Virus record (IMG/VR): IMGVR_UViG_3300042691_041392
Length of the DNA: 64,000 nt
Reading direction: 5' to 3' (one strand)
Source: a virus
In this document: piece after piece, positions 15,195 to 30,739 of the stretch
Layout: each line of letters opens with the position of its first letter
Position numbering within the stretch: the first letter of the stretch is position 1
Notes under the pieces: model-generated
The model's database searches: none
What the model saw: the letters and a program-made list of their open reading frames with translations, nothing else
What the model was told of the DNA's origin: nothing
Translations under genes and position numbers: made by a program

Positions 15195-15225
15195 AAAAAC
15201 CTCTTATTAAATAAGAGGTTTTTTT
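15195..15225. terminator. Bidirectional intrinsic terminator
   Basis: AAAAACCTCTTAT-taa-ATAAGAGGTTTTT. Confidence 0.8.
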
Positions 15226-15553
15226 ATAATAGTTTGTTTAATTTTAAGTCTCTATAAACACGTTTGGTTATATTACCAAGTGATATATCAGAAAATCCAA
15301 TTGGGTCTACCATATCGTCTAAAATCGTCTTATATTTGTTATACCACTCATAAAATATATCACAACTCATTATAATTATTTCAGCGAAAGATATATTTGT
15401 GATAAAATCATCATATTGACAAACTAAGACATTACAATCATGACCAAAACTACTATTAGTGTGATAAAAAGGATAATTTATTGTAACACACATATTCCAA
15501 TCTAATGTTACAATAAAACCCATTTTATGTATTCTATCTAACTCATCAATCAT
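15224..15553 (-). CDS. Hypothetical protein with C-terminal RDxK tag
   Basis: Ends RDLKLNKLL. Confidence 0.6.
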   Translation of the reverse strand: MIDELDRIHKMGFIVTLDWNMCVTINYPFYHTNSSFGHDCNVLVCQYDDFITNISFAEIIIMSCDIFYEWYNKYKTILDDMVDPIGFSDISLGNITKRVYRDLKLNKLL

Positions 15554-15767
15554 TTAAAATCTTTTTAATTTTAAAATCTCTTTTATCAGATTTTTCAAGA
15601 GGTTCTAAGTAGATTTCACCATCTGAAATCCTAACCTCCCATTTACCTCCAGTTTTATCATCTAATAAAACTAGTTTCTTAACTATTACATTTCCATCTG
15701 GATCAACTAAAATTGATGAATCTCCATTTGGAGTGTTTATTTCAAATCTATTTGGTTTAATTGCCAT
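15546..15767 (-). CDS. Hypothetical protein with C-terminal RDxK tag
   Basis: Ends RDFKIKKILND. Confidence 0.6.
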   Translation of the reverse strand: MAIKPNRFEINTPNGDSSILVDPDGNVIVKKLVLLDDKTGGKWEVRISDGEIYLEPLEKSDKRDFKIKKILND

Positions 15768-16461
15768 TTAAAAGTTTATCTATTTTTTCGTCTCTCATTT
15801 GAGATAATAGAATTAGTGATGATTTTTGAAACTCATCATCTATAACATAAACTACTTCATTATCACTTATTTCAAAATAAAAATCATAACTAATAATTAT
15901 TTTTGGTTGAAAAGTTGCTTCACTACGAACTTCATATTGAAAATTATTTATGTTAAATCGTATATCATTAAATAAATAAATCATTTCATCATCCCACCTA
16001 AGATATGGATCAACATAAACTTCAAAATCTAAATACTTACCAACTGGATAAATATAACCATTTGTATTCAATGTGTTTTTAGATAATTTGAAATTAAAAA
16101 AATGAAAAGATGATGAGTCTTGTAACTCAGCTGACAATCTAGCACAACTAACTAAATTTTTATACTTATATTTTGATAAATATAAGCTAGTTATGTTTAA
16201 TTTTTCATAATAACCAATATTTCTCAAATCGATAAAACCTTTATTATATTTCATCTCTTTGAATATATACTTAATTAAAGTTCTTAAAATCTCATATTTA
16301 ATCTGACTAATAAATTTATCTATATATTCATCAGTCATTGGAACTGAAACTGAAATACTCACACTATTTTTATTAGACGTTATTTTATCATCTAAAATTA
16401 AAAAGTCTTTGTTTTCAAAACTTAAAGATTTGATTATATTTTCTATTAAATCACTATACAT
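15757..16461 (-). CDS. Truncated, divergent paralog of the major capsid protein with C-terminal RDxK tag
   Basis: LSAELQD...LNTNGYIYPVG...VYVDPYLRWDD...SEATFQP aligns with MCP LAAALQD...LNGQGQLYPVG...IYVDPYMKYND...SEATFAP; ends RDEKIDKLLNGN. Confidence 0.75.
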   Translation of the reverse strand: MYSDLIENIIKSLSFENKDFLILDDKITSNKNSVSISVSVPMTDEYIDKFISQIKYEILRTLIKYIFKEMKYNKGFIDLRNIGYYEKLNITSLYLSKYKYKNLVSCARLSAELQDSSSFHFFNFKLSKNTLNTNGYIYPVGKYLDFEVYVDPYLRWDDEMIYLFNDIRFNINNFQYEVRSEATFQPKIIISYDFYFEISDNEVVYVIDDEFQKSSLILLSQMRDEKIDKLLNGN

Positions 16462-16463
16462 AA

Positions 16464-17417
16464 TTAATTTATCTTTTCACCAGTTTCGGGATTATAATTA
16501 AGAATTAAAATCTCAACACCCTTTTCTTGTTCTTTTTTAGTATCAGAATTATTACCACCTTGTGCGGAACTTCTAAATACTTCTTTCTCAAACCACATAT
16601 ATTTATCTCTTGGTAACAATTCTTCTAATAAAGGGAAATAATAATATGATAAAGACCAACGAGACTTTGACTTTTTAATCAACTCTAATAATCTTCTATG
16701 AGAAGCTGGTCCAAATACACCATCACTATCAGCACCATACCAAAACAACCTTTTAGCATCATCATCACCTTTACCTTCATTAAATCTCGCATATGGTGGA
16801 TCTAAATAGATATAAGTATCATCTGAGTCATATTTTGTAATAAGATCTTCAAAATCAATGTTAGTAAACTCTTTAATAGATTGTAGTTTCTCTGTATATT
16901 TATTCTTCTTTAATTTATCAATAAGAACTTCTAACTTTAATTTATCTTTATCTTTTTTATAACCATTGAATCCAGCACCTCGTGGATAAACTGAATTGTG
17001 AGCTGATGTAATTAAGAATGCGTAAATAGCAGCTTTTTCAAAATCACCAATCTCAAAATTCATATTATCTAAGAATTCATTTTTTTGATATTCTTTATAA
17101 ATGCCTTTATAGAAGTCCCATTTCTTTAAAGCTTCTGTTTCGTTTGTTTTTAAGAGAGTATTTTTTAGATTTTCTAAATAAGGTAGAAACTCTTGAGGTT
17201 TTGAACAACAATAATATAAATTAACTTGATGTCTATTTTTATCATTGTAAATGACAGTATCAACTTTTAATGTATCATCATCTAAATAGGTTCCCATAGA
17301 TCCACTAAATGGTTCTAAATAAGTTTTTATACTACCATCTTTAGGTATTTTTTTATTTATAAATTCGTGGAAAACATTTGAACTCTTGCCACCGAAATAT
17401 GATATCATCGCACACAT
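16464..17417 (-). CDS. DNA adenine methyltransferase, Dam/D12 class
   Basis: ISYFGGK, YLEPFSG, IYND and YLDPPY motifs. Confidence 0.85.
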   Translation of the reverse strand: MCAMISYFGGKSSNVFHEFINKKIPKDGSIKTYLEPFSGSMGTYLDDDTLKVDTVIYNDKNRHQVNLYYCCSKPQEFLPYLENLKNTLLKTNETEALKKWDFYKGIYKEYQKNEFLDNMNFEIGDFEKAAIYAFLITSAHNSVYPRGAGFNGYKKDKDKLKLEVLIDKLKKNKYTEKLQSIKEFTNIDFEDLITKYDSDDTYIYLDPPYARFNEGKGDDDAKRLFWYGADSDGVFGPASHRRLLELIKKSKSRWSLSYYYFPLLEELLPRDKYMWFEKEVFRSSAQGGNNSDTKKEQEKGVEILILNYNPETGEKIN

Positions 17418-17527: not shown

Positions 17528-18169
17528 ATGATTATATACAAAATATCTAATATAATAAATGATAAGATCTATATAGGTCAGACAATAGAGACATTGGATA
17601 AGAGGTGGAGAAGACACACATGGAAGTCAACTATAAAAAGAAATGTAATGGCTATAACCAATGCGATTATAAAATATGGTGTGGAAAATTTCATGATAGA
17701 GGAAATTGATAGTGCTGAAAATATAGAGGAGTTAAATATGAAAGAGGAATATTACATAAAATATTATGATTGTATATCACCAAAGGGTTATAATATAAAA
17801 AATGGTGGTGATAATAAAAAATTATCAGAGGAGACTAAACTAAAAATTAGCATTTCGAATAAAGGTAAAAAAAGAACAAAGGAAACTATAAAAAAACTAT
17901 CAGATTCACACAAAGGATGGGTTCCATCAGAGGAAACAAAACAAAAATGGAGAGATGCGTTTGGTGGTAAAAAACCATCTGACAACACTATAAATGCAGC
18001 TATAGAAGCAAATCAGAAGGAATACACACTTTTAAATCCGGATGGTGAACTTATAACATTTATAAATATGGCAAAGTTTTGTAAGGAAAACAATTTATCA
18101 AATTCTAAATTGTGCTTAGTTGCTAGTGGTAAGATAAAATCGCATAAAGGTTGGACAAAACCTATTTAA
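17528..18169 (+). mobile_element. Free-standing GIY-YIG homing endonuclease with NUMOD3 repeats
   Basis: IIYKI...IYIGQT, E in NMKEEYYI, GYN, and SEETK repeats; inserted antisense between NADAR and the methylase. Confidence 0.85.
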
Positions 18170-18668
18170 AAAATTGTTCTAAACCAGTTTTCTTTTCAAT
18201 TCCTCTTAGTTCATCACGAACTTTCATAAGTATTTTACCAAGATGATTTTTACCTTTATTTCCACACTTTTCACAATAACATGACCCATAAAAATTGTCG
18301 TGCCAATAATTACCTTCGATTAGCTGAAGATCTTCTGTGTTTAATAGAAGTTCTGATAAATTATCATTTTTGAATTTTTCTCTAACACCCCAATTCATGA
18401 ACTCTAATTTCTTTTCATCCCAATCACTACGAACTTTTAACTTTTGACCAAGTTTTTTAACGTGACCTGGACTTGGTGTTTTCGCAATCATTTCTTTAAA
18501 GTCAGCAGGTGTGTAATAAATACCATTTATCATTTGATCATTTTTACATTTTTGTGCTACATAGAAATGTTCTACACTTGGATATTTAATTCCTTGATGT
18601 TCTATTTCAACTGGATAGAAATTGGATAGAAAATTCCATCTACCATCAAATCTATTTATATAACTCAT
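18162..18668 (-). CDS. NADAR family (YbiA-like) hydrolase
   Basis: FLSNFYP...YPSVEHFY.AQK...KF...LIEGNYWHDNFYG...GKNHLGKILMKVR. Confidence 0.9.
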   Translation of the reverse strand: MSYINRFDGRWNFLSNFYPVEIEHQGIKYPSVEHFYVAQKCKNDQMINGIYYTPADFKEMIAKTPSPGHVKKLGQKLKVRSDWDEKKLEFMNWGVREKFKNDNLSELLLNTEDLQLIEGNYWHDNFYGSCYCEKCGNKGKNHLGKILMKVRDELRGIEKKTGLEQFFK

Positions 18669-18681
18669 AGTATTTTATATG

Positions 18682-18709
18682 AAAAAACCCCACAATGTTG
18701 TGGGGTTTT
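18682..18709. terminator. Intrinsic terminator downstream of the tmRNA
   Basis: AAAACCCCACAA-tg-TTGTGGGGTTTT. Confidence 0.8.
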
Positions 18710-18715
18710 AATTTG

Positions 18716-19080
18716 TGGAGAAGACCCGGTACCGCCCCGGGTGTACTACTCAGATGACAACAATTAATCTTCACAGGTTTAGTAGAGTTTTTCTAAACTT
18801 ACAAAATAGTTAGTTGAACTGACCCATCACTCTAACAATTCTGGTTTCACATTTGGTCTGTGTGATACAGTTGGAGAATTTTTTCGATTAGTTTCTCTTA
18901 AACTAACTCTGGAGTGTTAACTCCAATTGCTTTTAGGGTCGCTACTAAATCTTCACGAGATCCTACTTCATTTGTGTTGCCATTTACGACAGTTATCGAT
19001 TAATTTATAAATCGGACATTCGACAACCCGATACCTGCATAATCACCACCAATCTGCTAGGCGAATCTAATGACTTCCCC
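18716..19080 (-). ncRNA. ssrA: tmRNA (one-piece); tag reading frame 18981-18898 encodes GNTNEVGSREDLVATLKAIGVNTPELV*
   Basis: 365 nt; 5' GGGGAAG pairs with 3' CUUCUCC-A including G3:U; GAUUCG D-loop-like segment; P2 helices CAGAU/AUCUG and GCAGGU/ACCUGU; T-arm ACCCGG-GGCGGUA-CCGGGU; UAAAU-GGC resume context; CCA not encoded. Confidence 0.88.
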
Positions 19081-19102
19081 ATATTGTTTGTAATTATTTC
19101 TA

Positions 19103-19134
19103 CAAATGTATATATAATATTTTAAATATACAAA
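19103..19134 (-). promoter_or_regulatory. Bacteroidota-type housekeeping sigma promoter for the tmRNA
   Basis: TTTG(19134-19131)-N20-TACATTTG(19110-19103). Confidence 0.65.
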
Positions 19135-19157
19135 AAAGTTGAAAATTTTATTAAAAA

Positions 19158-19183
19158 AAATAACTCACCAAAGTGAGTTATTT
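19158..19183. terminator. Intrinsic terminator after the peptidase
   Basis: AAATAACTCAC-caaa-GTGAGTTATTT. Confidence 0.7.
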
Positions 19184-19189
19184 AATATT

Positions 19190-21034
19190 TTAGAATACAT
19201 CAGTATCATCTGGCATATCACCATCATCCATTGAGTAGAAGTTGAATATAAATAGTGGTTCTACTTTTCTTGTTTCCCATATATCACATTCCAAATCAAA
19301 ATCAATTAAGACATCTTTATCAATTTTCTTTATAACTTCATAGATATGAATAACTTCATCAAGTTTATAAAAATAATTAACCATTCCGTATGTTGTTGGT
19401 ATAATTTGAACTTTTAAATTCATACCAGTATTTGTTACTTCACAGTTTTTGATACCAGCTTGAGTAATCATTTTTCTCAAAAGATATTTAAGATTATCAA
19501 TATCATCAGTGTTATTATCGTCATCATCTTCATATTGATCATAATCCTCTTCCTCTTCATCATCCCATCTATCCCACTCTTCATTTAAGAATTGGTCATA
19601 TTTCTTCAATTTATTTGACTCATAAGGATCATTATAAGTTCTATTAGTCTTAGATGAACTATCTTTACCCAATATAATTTGTAAATATGTCTCATCAAAT
19701 AAACAAGAAGTTGGTCTTTTGTGAAGTTTCATAACATTTCTAAGTTCTTTTAAACTTTCTAAAATGGTATCAATATCTTCATTTTCTAAATCAAAGTTTA
19801 CATAAACATTACCGTGATCAGTTGAAATAGTTTTATCTAAATTAACTCCTTTTAAAGCATCGACAAATTCTTTATTTGATGTTTTAACATTAGATATCAT
19901 CTGTTTAATAGCCGCTCTATCTTGAATAGTTCTCACAACTGGTAAGTTAGCCCAATCTACATTAACAGAAGCTTTACATAAATCTATTAAGTAATCCATA
20001 TTTTGAATTTCTTTACCAGTATGCTCATTTAAATAACCAACTGAAACGTTTGTACATTCAGGAATATCATCTATAAATGAAGCTGAATCGGTGAATACAC
20101 CAGTAGGGTCAATTTTCAAATTCAATCCACTTGCGTTATATTGTTCACAAAGTGCGTTACCAAATTCATCAGAACAACATCTACCACCAGCTTGTGCGGT
20201 AATAACAGAAATTGTTTTTCTTCTATCAAAAGAAACACATCTTTTAATATTTTTCAAATAACTAACTTCATCATATTTATCAGCTAAAGCTCTAGAACCA
20301 ATACCACCTCTTTCTTCTCCGATAAAGAAGTAATAAAGACCTGGTACATTTTTAGCCATCATATATAACATAACAGTTGTTCCTGCTTTATCATCAGCAC
20401 CTAATACTGTTGTTCCATCAGTTACGATGTGTTCTTGTTCATCAATTTGAACAGAAAAAAGTCTTGTAACAGCTTGTTTTCTATCGGCTGTATCTAAGTG
20501 ACAAGTAAACATAGTTGTTGGATTGTCACCAATTATTTTATAATAGTTACCAACAATATCTTTACTTAATTCAGGTAGGAATTGAAGAACTTCATCTTCA
20601 TGTCCATGTGGATAAGTTTTAGTAACTAATGAAAGGAATGTAGATCTTGGATCTAATGGATTATATTCAAATGTAGGAACCTTAATTGGAATTTTTTCAT
20701 CTTCAACAGATTCTCCTTTTTTAACTTTATTATACAAAGTAACAAAGTTTTGAATATCTTCTGATGTAAAATAATTATGAAAATAATATCTAATAAAGTT
20801 ACCACATTTCATATCAACTGTTCCTTTATCTTTTGTTGTTACTTTAAAATGAAAATCTTTATCAGAAACATCAACATTTGTTATTTTCAATCCATTGAAA
20901 TATTCTGTATCTTCATCATCTAAACATAATATTTCAAAAGCAATATATTCATTCATATCATTAAGCTTTTCTAATACATCTATTAAAGCTTTTGATAATT
21001 TTATTTTTGGTAAGTTTGTTGGTTCTCCCGCCAT
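19190..21034 (-). CDS. M28/M20-type zinc metallopeptidase with N- and C-terminal extensions
   Basis: CHLDT, LGADDKAG, GEERG, FDR, FTDS and NEHT metal-binding motifs. Confidence 0.8.
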   Translation of the reverse strand: MAGEPTNLPKIKLSKALIDVLEKLNDMNEYIAFEILCLDDEDTEYFNGLKITNVDVSDKDFHFKVTTKDKGTVDMKCGNFIRYYFHNYFTSEDIQNFVTLYNKVKKGESVEDEKIPIKVPTFEYNPLDPRSTFLSLVTKTYPHGHEDEVLQFLPELSKDIVGNYYKIIGDNPTTMFTCHLDTADRKQAVTRLFSVQIDEQEHIVTDGTTVLGADDKAGTTVMLYMMAKNVPGLYYFFIGEERGGIGSRALADKYDEVSYLKNIKRCVSFDRRKTISVITAQAGGRCCSDEFGNALCEQYNASGLNLKIDPTGVFTDSASFIDDIPECTNVSVGYLNEHTGKEIQNMDYLIDLCKASVNVDWANLPVVRTIQDRAAIKQMISNVKTSNKEFVDALKGVNLDKTISTDHGNVYVNFDLENEDIDTILESLKELRNVMKLHKRPTSCLFDETYLQIILGKDSSSKTNRTYNDPYESNKLKKYDQFLNEEWDRWDDEEEEDYDQYEDDDDNNTDDIDNLKYLLRKMITQAGIKNCEVTNTGMNLKVQIIPTTYGMVNYFYKLDEVIHIYEVIKKIDKDVLIDFDLECDIWETRKVEPLFIFNFYSMDDGDMPDDTDVF

Positions 21035-21765: not shown

Positions 21766-23517
21766 TTAGTTAAGTAATTGATTTCTATCAGTTACAACGA
21801 TAGTCATAAATTGTTTTTGTGGGAACCAACCAACTTCAGCTACTGCGTATCTAGATCTTAGTAACATTCTTGGAGCGAAAGTCGCTTCAGAAATAACTGA
21901 GATAGATTGAGCCATTAAGTAAGGTACGAAGATGATACCTGGTTGATCAGGATTGTTTTTTCTACCTAAAACGATTCTGTTGTCGTTATATTTCATGTAT
22001 GGATCAACATAGATAGAAATATCACCAATTGAACCAACAGGATATAATTGACCTTGTCCGTTTAATTTAGATTTAACTGGGTTAATAGTGTAACCAGCGA
22101 TATCTTGTAAAGCTGCAGCTAATCCCCCGTTTGTGATTAAGTATTGAGCTGGACCTACACGACCTTCAGTTGCGATGTAGTTAGAAGCGTGAGCAATCTT
22201 AGTGATTAACTTTCTTTGAACAGCGTGTGTAGTTTCACCTGTTACAGCAGCACTAGCATAAGCTGTGTTTAAGTCAAAGATTGTTGAAGCAGAACCAGTA
22301 ATTAAAGTACTTGATAAAGAAGTATTTAATGGAGCTGATGTTCTGTTTAACGCACCCATCTCAAAGATTTTAGCAACGATTTGTTTAGAAATTGTTTGAG
22401 ATAACTCGTTAACAAGGATAGATTCCATTTTTTGAACGATATCCATACCTGTGTTAGCTTTAATATCTTCAATTTCTGTTCTTCTTAAAGCTGAAGATAC
22501 TTCAATAGTACCAACTGCGATAGTTTTAGAAGAAATTTTTGGTCCGATAACACCAGCGTAAGAGTCATCGTCAGCATCTCTACCCATTGGGTAAGAACCA
22601 GCAGCGTTAGAAGTAGCAACACCTGTCCAGTTTGCAGAGAAACCAGGGATATGATCTTCTAATGCAGATACTAATTCAACAGTTTTTGTACTTGCACCTG
22701 ATACAGAGTGAGTACCAACAAGAACGATTTGAGATGACATAGAAGCCGTAGCTGAGAATGTATTTCTTGTAGAGTCAAAAGCCCAAGCAGTTGTAAATTG
22801 GTTTACACCTGTGTGAGATGTGTTAGCTTGTCTGTAAGCTCTGAAGATTGGGTAACCATCGATACGAGAGAAACCTAAGAACTCAGCGTAAGCAGCTTTG
22901 TTTGAAGGCTCAGTTTGAGTAAACTCACCACCTACTGGTGCTTCAGATCCTGCTGTGTTAGATGCAGTACCTAAAGTAACCCATACTCTACCACCTTGAA
23001 GACCACCACTTGTTTGAGTAATGTTATATCCAGATAATTTAGTGTTTAATGTTGTAGTAACATTTCCTAATGTAGTAGAGTCTAAGTTTAATTTGAAAAC
23101 TTGTGGTCTCTCATCAGATGCGCCTAATCTTGTATCATCATATTGGAAATCAATATAAAGTAAATCAATTTTCGGACCTGGAGAAGGTTTAACAGCTACT
23201 AAATCTAAACCGATTGTTTGAGCAGCGATTTTCATAGCTACTGGTAAAAGGTTTTGACCAACGTCTCCTGAACCAGCAACACCACCCCAGTTTGCACCAA
23301 CTGTAACACCTGAAGGTGTATTTGAACCAATAACTGGATTTAAAACAGCACCCATACCTGCTACGTTAGAAGCATTTACATATGCATTTTCATTGATTGA
23401 GTGAAACTCAGCGTATTCCGCCATCCATTCAACTCTATCACCTGTAACTCCCATGTTCTCAAGAACCGGAGCCCATTTCTTAGTTGCTTTCGCTTTGTCT
23501 ATTCTAATGTGTGACAT
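21766..23517 (-). CDS. gp23: Major capsid protein (T4 gp23-like)
   Basis: KKWAPVLE, IGLDLVAVKP, IYVDPY, FVPY and RSRYAV gp23-family motifs; biased codon usage; probable maturation site SINE. Confidence 0.9.
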   Translation of the reverse strand: MSHIRIDKAKATKKWAPVLENMGVTGDRVEWMAEYAEFHSINENAYVNASNVAGMGAVLNPVIGSNTPSGVTVGANWGGVAGSGDVGQNLLPVAMKIAAQTIGLDLVAVKPSPGPKIDLLYIDFQYDDTRLGASDERPQVFKLNLDSTTLGNVTTTLNTKLSGYNITQTSGGLQGGRVWVTLGTASNTAGSEAPVGGEFTQTEPSNKAAYAEFLGFSRIDGYPIFRAYRQANTSHTGVNQFTTAWAFDSTRNTFSATASMSSQIVLVGTHSVSGASTKTVELVSALEDHIPGFSANWTGVATSNAAGSYPMGRDADDDSYAGVIGPKISSKTIAVGTIEVSSALRRTEIEDIKANTGMDIVQKMESILVNELSQTISKQIVAKIFEMGALNRTSAPLNTSLSSTLITGSASTIFDLNTAYASAAVTGETTHAVQRKLITKIAHASNYIATEGRVGPAQYLITNGGLAAALQDIAGYTINPVKSKLNGQGQLYPVGSIGDISIYVDPYMKYNDNRIVLGRKNNPDQPGIIFVPYLMAQSISVISEATFAPRMLLRSRYAVAEVGWFPQKQFMTIVVTDRNQLLN

Positions 23518-23551: not shown

Positions 23552-23597
23552 TATATATTACCTTAATTTTACTCGTTTTTTTCAAGTGTGGATTTTT
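23552..23597 (-). promoter_or_regulatory. Late promoter TAATATATA with upstream GAAAAAA..GAGT element
   Basis: AAAAATCCAcacttGAAAAAAACGAGT...TAATATATA before the MCP; similar at 25746-25790. Confidence 0.6.
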
Positions 23598-23603
23598 TAT
23601 AGA

Positions 23604-25712
23604 TTAGATGTTTTTGAATCTTTCCATAATAGCATTTACATCATTGTCAGATAATTTATCTTCTTGAATTAAAGCATCATGTGAAACTAATTTTTTAGTT
23701 ACAGATTCATTTGTTTTAAGATTTCTAGTTGCCCAGAAATGCTCAATTTGTGACTCAGTTGTTAACATTTCAGCTGGGTATAATCTAGCTTGTGATAACA
23801 TAGATTTTTTAGCTGATTCATTTAACTGATTCCAGATAGCCTTAGTGTTTTCAGGCATCATTCTGATAACTCTTTCTTCTAGAGTTTCATTTTTAGTTGA
23901 TAATGCTTCAGAAATTAATGAAAGAACTTCTTTTTGTGTGAAGTAACTTCTTTCGTTTATGTGAAGTTTAACAGTTTCTTGTTCTTCATTAGTTAAAGCA
24001 TAGTAACTATCAACTTGTGATTTAGATAAGAATTTTAAGAAATTCAAATCTGATGTCTCGGAAACTTTACGTTTTTTAGCCTCTTCGATTAATTTATTAA
24101 TAGATTCAGATAATTCAGAATCATTGTCACCAGAAACTTCATAGTCCATTGGTCCACATTCTTCATCATCTTCTTCATCTTCTTCGTGTGCATAAGCCTC
24201 TTCAGAACCTACGTGAGAAATACCATTGTATTCTTCTTCATCTTCGTTTTCTTCTTCAGAACCCCAAGCTTCTTCTTCATCCTCATCTTCTAAAGAAGAA
24301 AAACCAGCAGCGTTTAATGTTGGGAAAGCTTCTTCAGCAGATTCGAATAATTTACCACCGTTTAATTTCTCAGCAATCATCCCAGCGTAAGAGATTGATT
24401 TGTCTAAGTTCTCAGCGATATATTCAGAGTAAGCGATATTATCATCTAAGTGTTCAGCGATATATTCTGAATAAGCGATATTACCTTCTACGTGCTCAGC
24501 TAAATACTCAGAGTAAGCAATTGAATTATCAACGTGCTCAGCGATATATTCAGAGTAAGCGATGTTTTTATCTAAGTTTTCAGCGATGTATTCAGAGTAA
24601 GCGATATTCTTATCTAAATTCTCAGCGATATACTCAGAGTAAGCGATGTTTTTATCTAAGTTTTCAGCGATATACTCAGAATAAGAGATATTCTTATCTA
24701 AGTTTTCAGCGATATACTCAGAGTAAGCGATGTTTTTATCTAAGTTTTCAGCAACGTATTCAGAATAAGCGATATTCTTATCTAAATTCTCAGCTAAATA
24801 CTCAGAGTAATTAACAGCTTTTTCTAGATTTTCAGCTAAATAGTCATTGTGTTTAATAAGTTTGTCAGTTGTTTCTTTTAACGACTTGTTCTCATTAACC
24901 ATAATTTGAACTTTTTCAGCTAAATAATCTAAATACTTAACAACTTGAGAATTAGTAGTGTTTAATTCATCATAATACTCAAGTAGTTGTTCTAATTTCT
25001 TAGGGCTTAAGTTACCTTTAGAAATAGCATTCTTAACTTCTTTCTTTGTAGAAGCTAATTCATTAACTAAATACTTAGAGTAATCAGTTAATTGTTGCTT
25101 AGTAACAAACTCATTTTTGTTCATGTTAAATAGATCATTTATTTTTGACTCATCGGACATTTCATATATCCTAAAGTTGGATTGTGGATTATCATAACCT
25201 AGTGATTCATTAAGTGTTTTAACACTCATTTTAGCTGAAGCAAAACCTGGATCAGCAACTATATCATAAGTAAATAATTTCTTTAACGAAACTGATCCGT
25301 CAGACTCAGTAATACCTGCGGCTCTAGAAGAAACAAAAACAGGACATCCGTCATCGACCAATGCCTTAGCTTCTTTACCCCAATAAGTACTTAATAATCT
25401 GATTTCACCAGTGACATTATTAGCCTCTTTAACATAGTTAGCTTTAGTAATTATGTGTGAAGCCCTTGAAAGAGATGTGTCAAATACGTCTGGATGGTCA
25501 AATTCACCATACACAGCACCTAACCCATTCATCCTTTCGTTAAGTTCTTGTAGAGCTGGTAAGAATTTTTCAGCTGTATAAATTCTTTCATTACGGTTTT
25601 TAACACCGAATTCTGTAAATATACCACCTAATACATACTTATCTTTACTCACCGAATTATTCTCAACAATAAGAGAATTAGTTGAATTTTCTACAATTAA
25701 GACTGGTTTCAT
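23604..25712 (-). CDS. gp21: Prohead protease (gp21-like) fused to a coiled-coil scaffold
   Basis: KNRNERIY, GEFDHP, VSSRAAG and YDIVADPGF in the first ~170 aa, then 14-aa repeats and an acidic region. Confidence 0.85.
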   Translation of the reverse strand: MKPVLIVENSTNSLIVENNSVSKDKYVLGGIFTEFGVKNRNERIYTAEKFLPALQELNERMNGLGAVYGEFDHPDVFDTSLSRASHIITKANYVKEANNVTGEIRLLSTYWGKEAKALVDDGCPVFVSSRAAGITESDGSVSLKKLFTYDIVADPGFASAKMSVKTLNESLGYDNPQSNFRIYEMSDESKINDLFNMNKNEFVTKQQLTDYSKYLVNELASTKKEVKNAISKGNLSPKKLEQLLEYYDELNTTNSQVVKYLDYLAEKVQIMVNENKSLKETTDKLIKHNDYLAENLEKAVNYSEYLAENLDKNIAYSEYVAENLDKNIAYSEYIAENLDKNISYSEYIAENLDKNIAYSEYIAENLDKNIAYSEYIAENLDKNIAYSEYIAEHVDNSIAYSEYLAEHVEGNIAYSEYIAEHLDDNIAYSEYIAENLDKSISYAGMIAEKLNGGKLFESAEEAFPTLNAAGFSSLEDEDEEEAWGSEEENEDEEEYNGISHVGSEEAYAHEEDEEDDEECGPMDYEVSGDNDSELSESINKLIEEAKKRKVSETSDLNFLKFLSKSQVDSYYALTNEEQETVKLHINERSYFTQKEVLSLISEALSTKNETLEERVIRMMPENTKAIWNQLNESAKKSMLSQARLYPAEMLTTESQIEHFWATRNLKTNESVTKKLVSHDALIQEDKLSDNDVNAIMERFKNI
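24360..24850 (-). repeat. 42-bp coding tandem repeat (YSEYIAENLDKNIA x10 plus degenerate flanks)
   Basis: Read directly from the translation. Confidence 0.9.
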
Positions 25713-28187: not shown

Positions 28188-28646
28188 ATGGGACAATTAT
28201 ATAGAGTAGATAATGAGGATTCTCATTTAAAAAATAGAATTAAAAAATTCTATTTAGAAGGAATTAAATTATCACAATTTGAAAATAAATTAGAAAAGTG
28301 GCCCAACTGGTTACAATTTAAAAGAGAAATTAAGTTGAACTCTTTACTAGAAGGTAAAAGAGTTCAATTTGATATTGAAGATATTAATGAATGGGGTAAA
28401 ATTGATAGTGTTAAATCAAATGATATGAGTTTATCTGATGTGGTTTTTTCGGTTAAAAGAATCACAATGATTATAAAAGATGATATTGTCGATGAGTTAG
28501 AAATTGAATGGAGACCATTACAAACAGAATTGGGTAGATCAATAATTGGATTATTAGATGCTGGAATTGATGTAGATATATCTATGAGTTTCTTTGAGGA
28601 TCAATTTAGTCATTTTTATATAAAAACAGAAAAGAATGTAGCATAA
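28188..28646 (+). CDS. Catalytically degenerate prohead-protease paralog with an internal RExK tag
   Basis: WGKIDSVKSNDMSLS aligns ungapped with protease YGEFDHPDVFDTSLS; LQTELGRSIIGLLDAG aligns with LSTYWGKEAKALVDDG; both His lost. Confidence 0.6.
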   Translation: MGQLYRVDNEDSHLKNRIKKFYLEGIKLSQFENKLEKWPNWLQFKREIKLNSLLEGKRVQFDIEDINEWGKIDSVKSNDMSLSDVVFSVKRITMIIKDDIVDELEIEWRPLQTELGRSIIGLLDAGIDVDISMSFFEDQFSHFYIKTEKNVA

Positions 28647-28683: not shown

Positions 28684-30435
28684 TTAAAATTCAAACTCAC
28701 TACCACCTTGAGCACCACCACCTTGAGCTGGAGGAGCTTCGGGAGCCGCTTGTCCACCACCTTGAGCAGGAGCCTCAGGAGCCGCTTGTCCACCGGCTTG
28801 AGCACCACCTTGAGCACCCATTTCACCACCGACTTGAGCACCACCTTGAGCACCCATTTCACCACCGACTTGAGCACCACCTTGAGCACCCGGAGCGGCT
28901 CCGGCGCCAGCAGCATCTTTAGCCCAATATTTCTGGTTTTCAGCTTTTTCTTCAGGTGTTAATTTAAATACGTGATCCATTATCCATTCAATATGGAAAT
29001 AAGGTTTTTCACCATTCATAATACCAGTAAGTGTACCAATTGCTTCAGCTCTTTTAGCTAAATTATTAATCTTTTTCCACTCTTCAAAAATTTGATTTGA
29101 GTTGAAATCAATATCTATCTCATTCATTATAATATCATCTTCTCTGAGTTCTGGAAATTCAACTAACATTTGTAGTTTAAGAGGTTTTACTATAATTTCT
29201 TTAAAATTTGCTCTTAATCTACCAATAAAATTATGAAACTTAACTTCATCATTTGTCATACCAGCTTGATCAGCAACAAAAGTACCACCACCACCTTCAG
29301 CTTCAAATCGATTAATTGGAATTTTAGAAGCTCTTTTAAGTGCCATGTGAAACCACTTCAACATACCATCTTCATTTATATCATGTCCTTGAGGAGCAAC
29401 TAATTCCATATTAGGAGTACCAGCATCACCATCAGGAAACCATACTTGTTTATTATACGGAATATGTTTAGCACCATTTATAGAAATTGTACCCAATGTA
29501 TCATCAAATTCAATTTCTTCTGAATAATCTTGTATCAATTGACCTATTTGTTCTTCCGCCTTTTGTCTAGATAAACCTTTGATCGGAATAGTAAATTTTT
29601 GATAGACAGTAGCATTCATTATATTAAACATAATTCTTGTTTGCTCAAGAATTTTTAACTGGTTATAAGGTTTAATTAAACCTTCAACATATGAAGTCTC
29701 AGAAAAATCATTTTGAGTTGAATATGAAATAAATGCTATTTGAGAATCTAAAAATATTCTTCTCAACTGCGGATCTTCAGGAAACTGAATCCATAAGTGA
29801 CCAACGTTTGGTTCATAAGCTGGTACAATACTTTCTGGTTTTAACCTATTAAATGCGATTATATTCTTCTTTTTATCATCCCAAACTAATTCAACTGCCA
29901 AATAACCATCTATAAGAAAGTCTCTCATCATGTTAAAAGCAGTAACACTATCTGAAAATCCAAACTTATTATATATTTTTTCAAAAAATTCTTGATATTT
30001 ATCTTTTATATCTTGTGAATAGTCAGAAGATAATGGTGATGGTGAACAAAAGTCTTTAGTATCATTATAAACAATGGACTCATCCGCGATAGCACTAATA
30101 AAATCTCTAATTTCATCTTTAATTGAATATTCTCTTAGTATTCTTCTTTTATCAGGATAAGACTTATCCAAATAAGGTATAGATTTTCTATTTAAAACCG
30201 AAGCAACCGCTCTTTGAGAAAAGAAGTCATACATTGAACTACCTCTCGCTGCATAAGGATCTTCGTTAATACCAACACCAACTTGATTTCTGATGATCAT
30301 ATCATCGTAGTTCATACCATAGTTAGATAAGTTTCTTAATATTCTACTAAAAAGACCTTTATTTTCTACAGCGGAATTCACAAAACCCATTCCACCTTGA
30401 GAGTTATTATTATTTGTATAATTATATGAAGCCAT
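28684..30435 (-). CDS. gp20: Portal protein (T4 gp20-like) with Gly/Ala/Gln-rich tail
   Basis: IDGYL, SYVEGLIKPYNQLKILE, KAEEQI, LKRASKIP.NR and DEVKFHNFIGRLR motifs. Confidence 0.88.
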   Translation of the reverse strand: MASYNYTNNNNSQGGMGFVNSAVENKGLFSRILRNLSNYGMNYDDMIIRNQVGVGINEDPYAARGSSMYDFFSQRAVASVLNRKSIPYLDKSYPDKRRILREYSIKDEIRDFISAIADESIVYNDTKDFCSPSPLSSDYSQDIKDKYQEFFEKIYNKFGFSDSVTAFNMMRDFLIDGYLAVELVWDDKKKNIIAFNRLKPESIVPAYEPNVGHLWIQFPEDPQLRRIFLDSQIAFISYSTQNDFSETSYVEGLIKPYNQLKILEQTRIMFNIMNATVYQKFTIPIKGLSRQKAEEQIGQLIQDYSEEIEFDDTLGTISINGAKHIPYNKQVWFPDGDAGTPNMELVAPQGHDINEDGMLKWFHMALKRASKIPINRFEAEGGGGTFVADQAGMTNDEVKFHNFIGRLRANFKEIIVKPLKLQMLVEFPELREDDIIMNEIDIDFNSNQIFEEWKKINNLAKRAEAIGTLTGIMNGEKPYFHIEWIMDHVFKLTPEEKAENQKYWAKDAAGAGAAPGAQGGAQVGGEMGAQGGAQVGGEMGAQGGAQAGGQAAPEAPAQGGGQAAPEAPPAQGGGAQGGSEFEF

Positions 30436-30514: not shown

Positions 30515-30739
30515 CTATATTCCTAATTCATTCAGTTTATTATCTCTCAACTTTTCTTTTAGTCTAAGTTCGTAGTCTTCTAACTTTACACTAAAACTAT
30601 TAGACCAAATAAGTTCTCTATAAGGGGCCATTATCCACTCATTGTGTAAATAAACATTTTCAAAAATGATATTTTTTCTTTTTACAGTAGGATCTTTCTC
30701 AATAATAAAATCCTTAATTAATTCATAATCATACTTCAT
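30515..30739 (-). CDS. Hypothetical protein with C-terminal RDxK tag
   Basis: Ends LRDNKLNELGI. Confidence 0.6.
   Translation of the reverse strand: MKYDYELIKDFIIEKDPTVKRKNIIFENVYLHNEWIMAPYRELIWSNSFSVKLEDYELRLKEKLRDNKLNELGI

Follow-up and report, generated by a model that had tools for sequence, protein, structure and literature searches.

A tagged, compact paralogue of the major capsid protein encoded in a Dam methylase unit of megaphages

Introduction

Why would a large phage keep a small relative of its major capsid protein (MCP) inside a DNA methylase unit? The question is raised by a 234-amino acid (aa) open reading frame (ORF) in a stretch of viral DNA of 64,000 nucleotides (IMG/VR record IMGVR_UViG_3300042691_041392, hereafter the window). 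The original prediction, made from the sequence by eye, took its product for a truncated MCP copy that does not assemble and serves as a decoy for capsid-sensing defence or as a regulator of head assembly. The ORF (P0001) lies exactly where it had been placed, at 15757..16461 on the minus strand, and we call it the mini-capsid gene. MCP paralogues are known as vertex proteins or as satellite capsid redirectors; we found no earlier account of widespread MCP copies that are lattice-incompetent, fast-evolving, tagged and encoded outside the late head genes.

Results

The mini-capsid protein is a paralogue of the major capsid protein

The MCP of the window is a gp23-type protein of 583 aa (21766..23517, minus strand; Pfam PF07068, E=2e-27). 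Its gene carries the head-gene motif TAATATATA 43 nt upstream and lies in a T4-like head block, after a protease-scaffold fusion (23604-25712, minus strand) and on the same strand as the portal gene (28684-30435). Judged by MCP searches, in which the closest protein was 73% identical, the window belongs with uncultured megaphages of 634-735 kb. These phages form the Mahaphage clade, with predicted Bacteroidetes hosts (PMC7162821). Genome-wide counts were made in complete relatives of the window, such as the 642-kb LR756502.

Two neighbours of the MCP gene showed features of their own. The prohead protease has an S77-like N-terminus and a C-terminal extension of ~400 aa that is probably the scaffold, as in the PTm1 annotation. 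Downstream of the MCP, an M28-like peptidase is a single 614-aa ORF in the window (19190-21034, minus strand) and two ORFs (~455 and 136-172 aa) in L001 (4388-6282), L002 (4432-6301) and L029 (2347-4114). For the stretch 18600-19400 of the window, ARAGORN and Rfam (E<=0.01) gave neither a tmRNA nor a match to another RNA family.

We compared the mini-capsid protein with the MCP, using the pairwise and profile alignments that the original prediction had proposed as checks. BLASTP aligned mini-capsid residues 103-190 with MCP residues 460-553 (E=4e-12, 34% identity over 97 aa), a span that contains all of the ELQD/ALQD, YPVG, YVDPY and SEATF.P matches noted by eye. A profile of 143 family members matched the window MCP with E=1e-28, profile positions 35-199 corresponding to MCP residues 338-557. 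This longer alignment covers the spine-helix match that had also been seen by eye, as do the orthologous mini-capsid and MCP pairs of LR745206 (E=2e-17) and LR756502 (E=5e-7), which reach back through the spine helix. The outcome that had been named against the prediction, no significant alignment, did not occur. Since all of the by-eye matches lie inside computed alignments, the likeness to the C-terminal half of the MCP is real and far beyond chance.

Together, the profile-to-MCP alignment, BLASTP and the conservation of each element delimit an MCP-homologous core at about residues 31-198 (15868..16371, minus strand). It comprises the strand before the spine helix, the spine helix (residues 44-69) and the A/P-domain strands with the LQDS, YPVG and VDPY...LF motifs. 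The mini-capsid protein itself had no Pfam match at E<=1, staying below the gathering threshold of PF07068 (Gp23); this miss notwithstanding, the profile match makes it a homologue of a bona fide PF07068 member. A profile search of PDB sequences with the mini-capsid protein gave nothing relevant, and two single-protein scans of viral contigs gave no matches. An apparent match to the 5191-aa protein P0098 was rejected as spurious, because it adds up weak matches to the repeats of a protein rich in Thr.

The predicted fold is a compact HK97 core

Structure prediction, the other computational check proposed at the outset, depended on the depth of the alignment. AlphaFold reached a pLDDT of 37 with only 22 close homologues and a pLDDT of 93 (pTM 0.87) with a deep alignment, giving a confident HK97 fold that matches T4 gp23 and gp24. 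In order, the model has a helix (residues 2-12), a short hairpin (21-39), the 26-residue spine helix (44-69), the A/P-domain strands and an extra helix (213-231); the HK97 superfamily core of spine helix, P-domain sheet and A-domain is present.

Foldseek at E<=1e-3 returned 158 PDB and 172 viral matches, and all of those listed are capsid or encapsulin proteins. VIA-align gave Z scores of 9-10.4 over 175-195 aligned residues, with residues 1-210 of the model running end to end along T4 gp24 (3-422), gp23 (108-521), HK97 gp5 (120-383) and encapsulins. T4 gp24 was among the best matches (Z 10.4 and 9.7); encapsulins scored Z 8.5-9.4. In a comparison with the ESM Atlas, the protein's own model there was poor.

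What is absent lies at the N-terminal side. The MCP alignment starts at MCP residue 338, and the counterpart of residues 1-337 is missing; in the parent, about these first 337 residues supply the propeptide, the N-arm, the long E-loop and the insertion domain. The E-loop is reduced to a stub, the 19-residue hairpin 21-39 before the spine helix, without the long hairpin that overlaps a neighbouring subunit. The label "truncated" is therefore half right: the N-terminal half of the MCP is indeed missing, but the model is that of a complete compact HK97 core with an additional C-terminal helix. This helix (residues 213-231; 15769..15825, minus strand) is family-specific, as judged from the model and from conservation.

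The mini-capsid family is large and diverges fast

With a word-indexed search we recovered 22 homologues at full length (226-239 aa). An exhaustive profile search extended the family to at least 230 clusters at 50% identity, nearly all of 220-270 aa. In an alignment of 143 members the mean column identity was 18%, with G141, D151, R223 and I227 nearly invariant and R223 and I227 kept in at least 90% of the members. The mini-capsid protein is thus not a decayed fragment.

On the 132 columns shared with the MCP, the tagged mini-capsid family forms one clade with 97% support. Compared against the same relatives, the MCP is 77-80% identical, Dam 63-92% and the mini-capsid protein 28-36%. For the same genome pairs and the same columns, patristic distances between mini-capsid proteins are 8-33x those between MCPs. 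The columns most conserved with the MCP are A-domain motifs. The gene is absent from LR756504 and Lak-B5, which build their capsids with the same type of MCP. Neither LR756502 nor LR745206 has a full-length gp24-like paralogue, so the MCP probably forms its own pentons.

The mini-capsid gene belongs to a conserved Dam unit that lacks the head-gene motif

We looked at the context of the gene, which had been described as a methylase operon. Its upstream neighbour is a D12-class N6-adenine DNA methyltransferase (Dam; 16464..17417, minus strand; Pfam PF02086, E=3e-14) with an intact DPPY motif, whose stop codon lies 2 nt before the mini-capsid start. Dam is the first gene of a four-gene unit joined by this gap or by overlaps of 8-11 nt: a 73-aa ORF (15546..15767, minus strand), ending in RDFKIKKILND, overlaps the mini-capsid gene by 11 nt, and a 109-aa ORF (15224..15553, minus strand), ending in RDLKLNKLL, overlaps the 73-aa ORF by 8 nt. 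A terminator-like hairpin with a 13-bp stem followed by a T run (15195..15223, minus strand) closes the unit. In 10 of the 10 distinct contexts for which upstream sequence was available, the gene immediately before the mini-capsid gene was Dam; these contexts include members only ~25% identical and one locus with rearranged neighbours. The spacing varied between a gap of a few nt and an overlap of 11 nt. Four genomes without a tagged mini-capsid gene also lack the Dam orthologue. The methylase operon is thus a conserved unit.

The gene had further been said to have no late promoter. The motif [TA]AATATATA(G) occurs 39-43 nt upstream of the MCP start in 4 of the 5 genomes compared; in the fifth, LR756502, a near-variant falls outside the pattern. 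In the window, the protease, p204, M28 and portal genes also have this motif, or one close to it, upstream. None of 8 relatives has it before the Dam unit, and TAATATATA is likewise absent inside Dam. The sole occurrence near Dam in the window, at -92, arrived with the insertion of a GIY-YIG homing endonuclease. Judged by this motif, the claim of a missing late promoter stands.

The wider distribution of the candidate late or head-gene promoter TAATATATA (extended form [TA]AATATATAG) was also recorded. It occurs 22 times in the window, at 23552, 21691, 21056 and other positions, lies 8-45 nt upstream of head genes, and precedes ~160 genes in LR756502. The GIY-YIG/NUMOD3 endonuclease (17528-18169, plus strand) sits between NADAR and Dam in the window genome only, and with its insertion came a palindromic TATATATA element resembling the head-gene motif. 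An alternative promoter upstream of Dam, AACTTT..TATAA, was discarded because it does not form a general class.

A C-terminal tag marks the mini-capsid protein and a putatively non-late class of proteins

The extra helix of the mini-capsid protein carries the peptide RDEKIDKLL (residues 223-231; 15769-15795, minus strand), 3 residues from the end. We scanned for the pattern R-[DE]-x-K-[LIV]-x-x-[LIV]-[LIG] and a narrower form, R-[DE]-x-K-[LI]-x-x-[LI]-[LG]. The motif occurs 5 times in the ORFs of the window, where 0.085 occurrences are expected, and 4 of these are at the extreme C-terminus: in the mini-capsid protein, the two ORFs after it and the ORF 30515-30739. The ORF 28188-28646 is also listed among the tag-bearing ORFs.

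Orthologues in other genomes retain the tag. It is present on those of the 73-aa ORF in L001 and L028 (L002 and L068 are without a strict match) and on those of the 109-aa ORF in L003, L004 and L028 (L029 is without one). Within the mini-capsid family itself, the strict tag is found in 93 of 143 members, and 122 of 143 match a loose version.

Because the pattern had been defined post hoc in the window, we tested it on independent DNA. The complete genome LR756502 (642 kb) has 88 ORFs with the motif, and in 77 of them it lies within 20 residues of the end (0.23 expected). These 77 ORFs are mostly small and crowd near the genome ends (4-50 kb and 585-641 kb). Tags come in two flavours, ending in IL or in LGI. 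Codon usage at the motif mirrors that of the genome, which argues for selection on the peptide and rules out a nucleotide element. A tag variant ends 19 ORFs in the first 400 kb of LR756504 (0.4 expected), and the scan found no tag endings in PTm1.

Are the tagged proteins truncated copies of structural proteins in general? They are not: phmmer found such a relation only for the mini-capsid protein. The tagged bodies are mutually unrelated and mostly without Pfam matches. The mini-capsid protein is a client of the tag that, as a capsid-protein derivative, has a known fold and ancestry.

Tagged genes also differ from untagged ones in what precedes them. In LR756502 the head-gene motif stands before 1 of 73 tagged and 160 of 865 untagged genes (p=1.5e-5), and at the level of units before 3 of 46 tagged and 103 of 297 others. 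The mini-capsid protein shares both traits of this tagged accessory proteome of Bacteroidota megaphages, the C-terminal tag and the lack of the head-gene motif upstream. We infer from the absence of that one motif that the mini-capsid gene is non-late.

Discussion

What does a phage gain from such a protein? A soluble capsid mimic is more likely than a building block of the shell: the loss of the lattice-locking elements, the non-head promoter class, membership of the tagged class, the fast divergence and the absence from sister genomes together fit a mimic better than a shell subunit. We tentatively favour, at somewhat less than an even chance, a non-shell, non-late mimic of the MCP that acts as a decoy for capsid-sensing immunity or as an assembly interferer.

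On this reading the gene encodes a stable, compact protein that stems from an old duplication of the phage lineage's own gp23-type MCP gene. Spine helix, P-domain sheet and A-domain have been kept in the copy; the propeptide, long N-arm, long E-loop and insertion domain, by which subunits interlock, have gone, and the portable C-terminal tag of the clade has been added. Expressed together with Dam and not from the head-gene promoter, the protein would be soluble and presumably part of the tagged, non-late accessory proteome of the phage. Its most likely mechanism would then be to show an A/P-domain surface resembling that of the MCP to some factor whose usual ligand is the MCP itself. Such a factor would most plausibly be an immune receptor of the host that senses capsids; the mimic, as a decoy or competitive inhibitor, would engage this receptor but leave it untriggered. 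Less likely targets would be MCP capsomers, from the phage itself or from a competitor, to be capped or poisoned.

HK97-fold MCPs are recognised by Avs7/8/10, CapRel and Lit (PMC13581612). Among these, Avs7/8/10 are fold-recognising sensors that grip the HK97 fold mainly by its A-domain (PMC13581612), the domain that the mini-capsid protein retains. Because sensors that wrap around the HK97 fold are known, a decoy mechanism is conceivable; no phage MCP decoy is reported in that study (PMC13581612), and our literature search found no description of a phage-encoded capsid decoy. The sharpest version of the favoured reading is one we consider unlikely as it stands: an early-made, fold-faithful, lattice-incompetent decoy that occupies A-domain receptors (Avs7/8/10-like or similar), is delivered or timed by its tag, and shares an anti-defence unit with Dam in a protective role. 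Some points count against a mimic: by binding a sensor it might set it off instead of blocking it, relaxed constraint could likewise account for the fast evolution, and the invariant link to Dam is left unexplained.

A role in the virion is the structural alternative. The mini-capsid protein could be a minor component of the virion, assembling together with the MCP as gp24 does, either as a pared-down vertex (penton) subunit or in some other specialised capsomer, and we give this a small but real chance. T4 gp24 is a late head operon gene product that keeps its E-loop, its insertion domain and a cleaved propeptide. Like gp24, the mini-capsid protein is an HK97-fold paralogue of a gp23-type MCP; its gene lies on the MCP strand, 5 kb further downstream, an order reminiscent of gp23 and gp24, T4 gp24 is among its best fold matches (Z ~10), the relatives have no other gp24-like paralogue, and the motifs it best shares with the MCP sit in the A-domain. 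Unlike gp24, it is far from full-length (234 aa, against 583 for its MCP and 427 for gp24, so that it is indeed, as had been said, much smaller than gp24-type proteins) and lacks the three elements that gp24 retains. Its gene stands apart in a Dam unit without the head-gene motif, it evolves 8-33x faster than the lattice into which it would have to fit, LR756504 and Lak-B5 do without it, and its C-terminal helix is a proteome-wide tag common to dozens of unrelated non-late proteins. The tag could still be a head-loading signal. Rather less probable is that the protein acts on assembly, as a dominant-negative interferer or brake that caps MCP capsomers early, whether to prevent premature assembly or to sabotage satellites that hijack capsids or relatives that co-infect. 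The A/P-domain core is still there, the interlocking elements are gone and the protein belongs to the non-late class, and there is a precedent for an MCP homologue used other than as the main shell protein of its own genome: SaPIbov5 Ccm, an HK97-fold homologue by which a satellite redirects capsid size. Ccm, however, is a complete subunit able to form capsids, whereas the mini-capsid protein is the phage's own product, has lost its lattice elements and is tagged. Surfaces that contact a very conserved MCP should also be conserved, yet this protein diverges fast.

The constant company of Dam raises the question of a functional partnership, in which the mini-capsid protein would, for example, regulate or target Dam as its subunit and so link methylation with packaging or with the capsid. 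The order from Dam to mini-capsid gene holds in 10 of 10 contexts, even among ~25%-identical members and at the rearranged locus, and the Dam orthologue is absent from the four genomes without a tagged mini-capsid gene. The whole block is syntenic, however, so the adjacency may reflect shared descent; conservation of 63-92% for Dam against 28-36% for its neighbour is unusual for an obligate complex, the Dam unit holds two further, unrelated tagged ORFs, and we found no precedent for such a partnership. We therefore regard it as improbable, about as much so as an assembly brake. An encapsulin-like shell protein or tag reader that sequesters tagged proteins is far harder to credit. Encapsulins resemble the mini-capsid protein in their compact HK97 fold, their size and their N-terminal helix, and many phage proteins carry a C-terminal peptide as encapsulin cargo does. 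Encapsulins, however, have a functional E-loop and form shells that read C-terminal cargo peptides, whereas here the E-loop needed for shell contacts is a stub and the protein carries the tag itself. A reader is further disfavoured because LR756504 has no mini-capsid gene yet keeps its 19 tag-variant endings. Just as hard to sustain is a decaying duplicate without function: fast divergence would suit it, but length and motifs are preserved across 230 clusters, the coevolution signal is strong enough for a pLDDT of 93, and the position in the operon is conserved.

The choice between a soluble mimic and a shell component matters in either direction. A decoy would be the first structural-protein mimic in counter-defence and would define a new counter-defence class against the recently described capsid-sensing receptors; a structural role would give the largest known phage capsids a penton of unusually minimal form. 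As a megaphage tag client of known fold and ancestry, the mini-capsid protein could also help to find the reader of the tag.

Other MCP-derived ORFs were seen elsewhere. Small pieces lie in LR756502 (91143-91535, plus strand; 241135-241887, minus strand) and LR745206 (104995-105252, plus strand); such pieces, which have no counterpart in the window, include a tagged A-domain fragment of 130 aa and an untagged ORF of 250 aa with weak Gp23 similarity. Untagged truncated MCP paralogues that are not next to Dam occur in other lineages of megaphages or jumbo phages, namely in L018 (LR756500, 246221-249781), L023 (LR756501, 540796-544332) and L027 (6447-7022). The last is PTm1 ORF-116 and adjoins MazG and helicase genes. 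The LR756500 copy is 313 aa long; that of LR756501 has 188 aa, is ~45% like the MCP by eye and is probably a recent, separate duplication.
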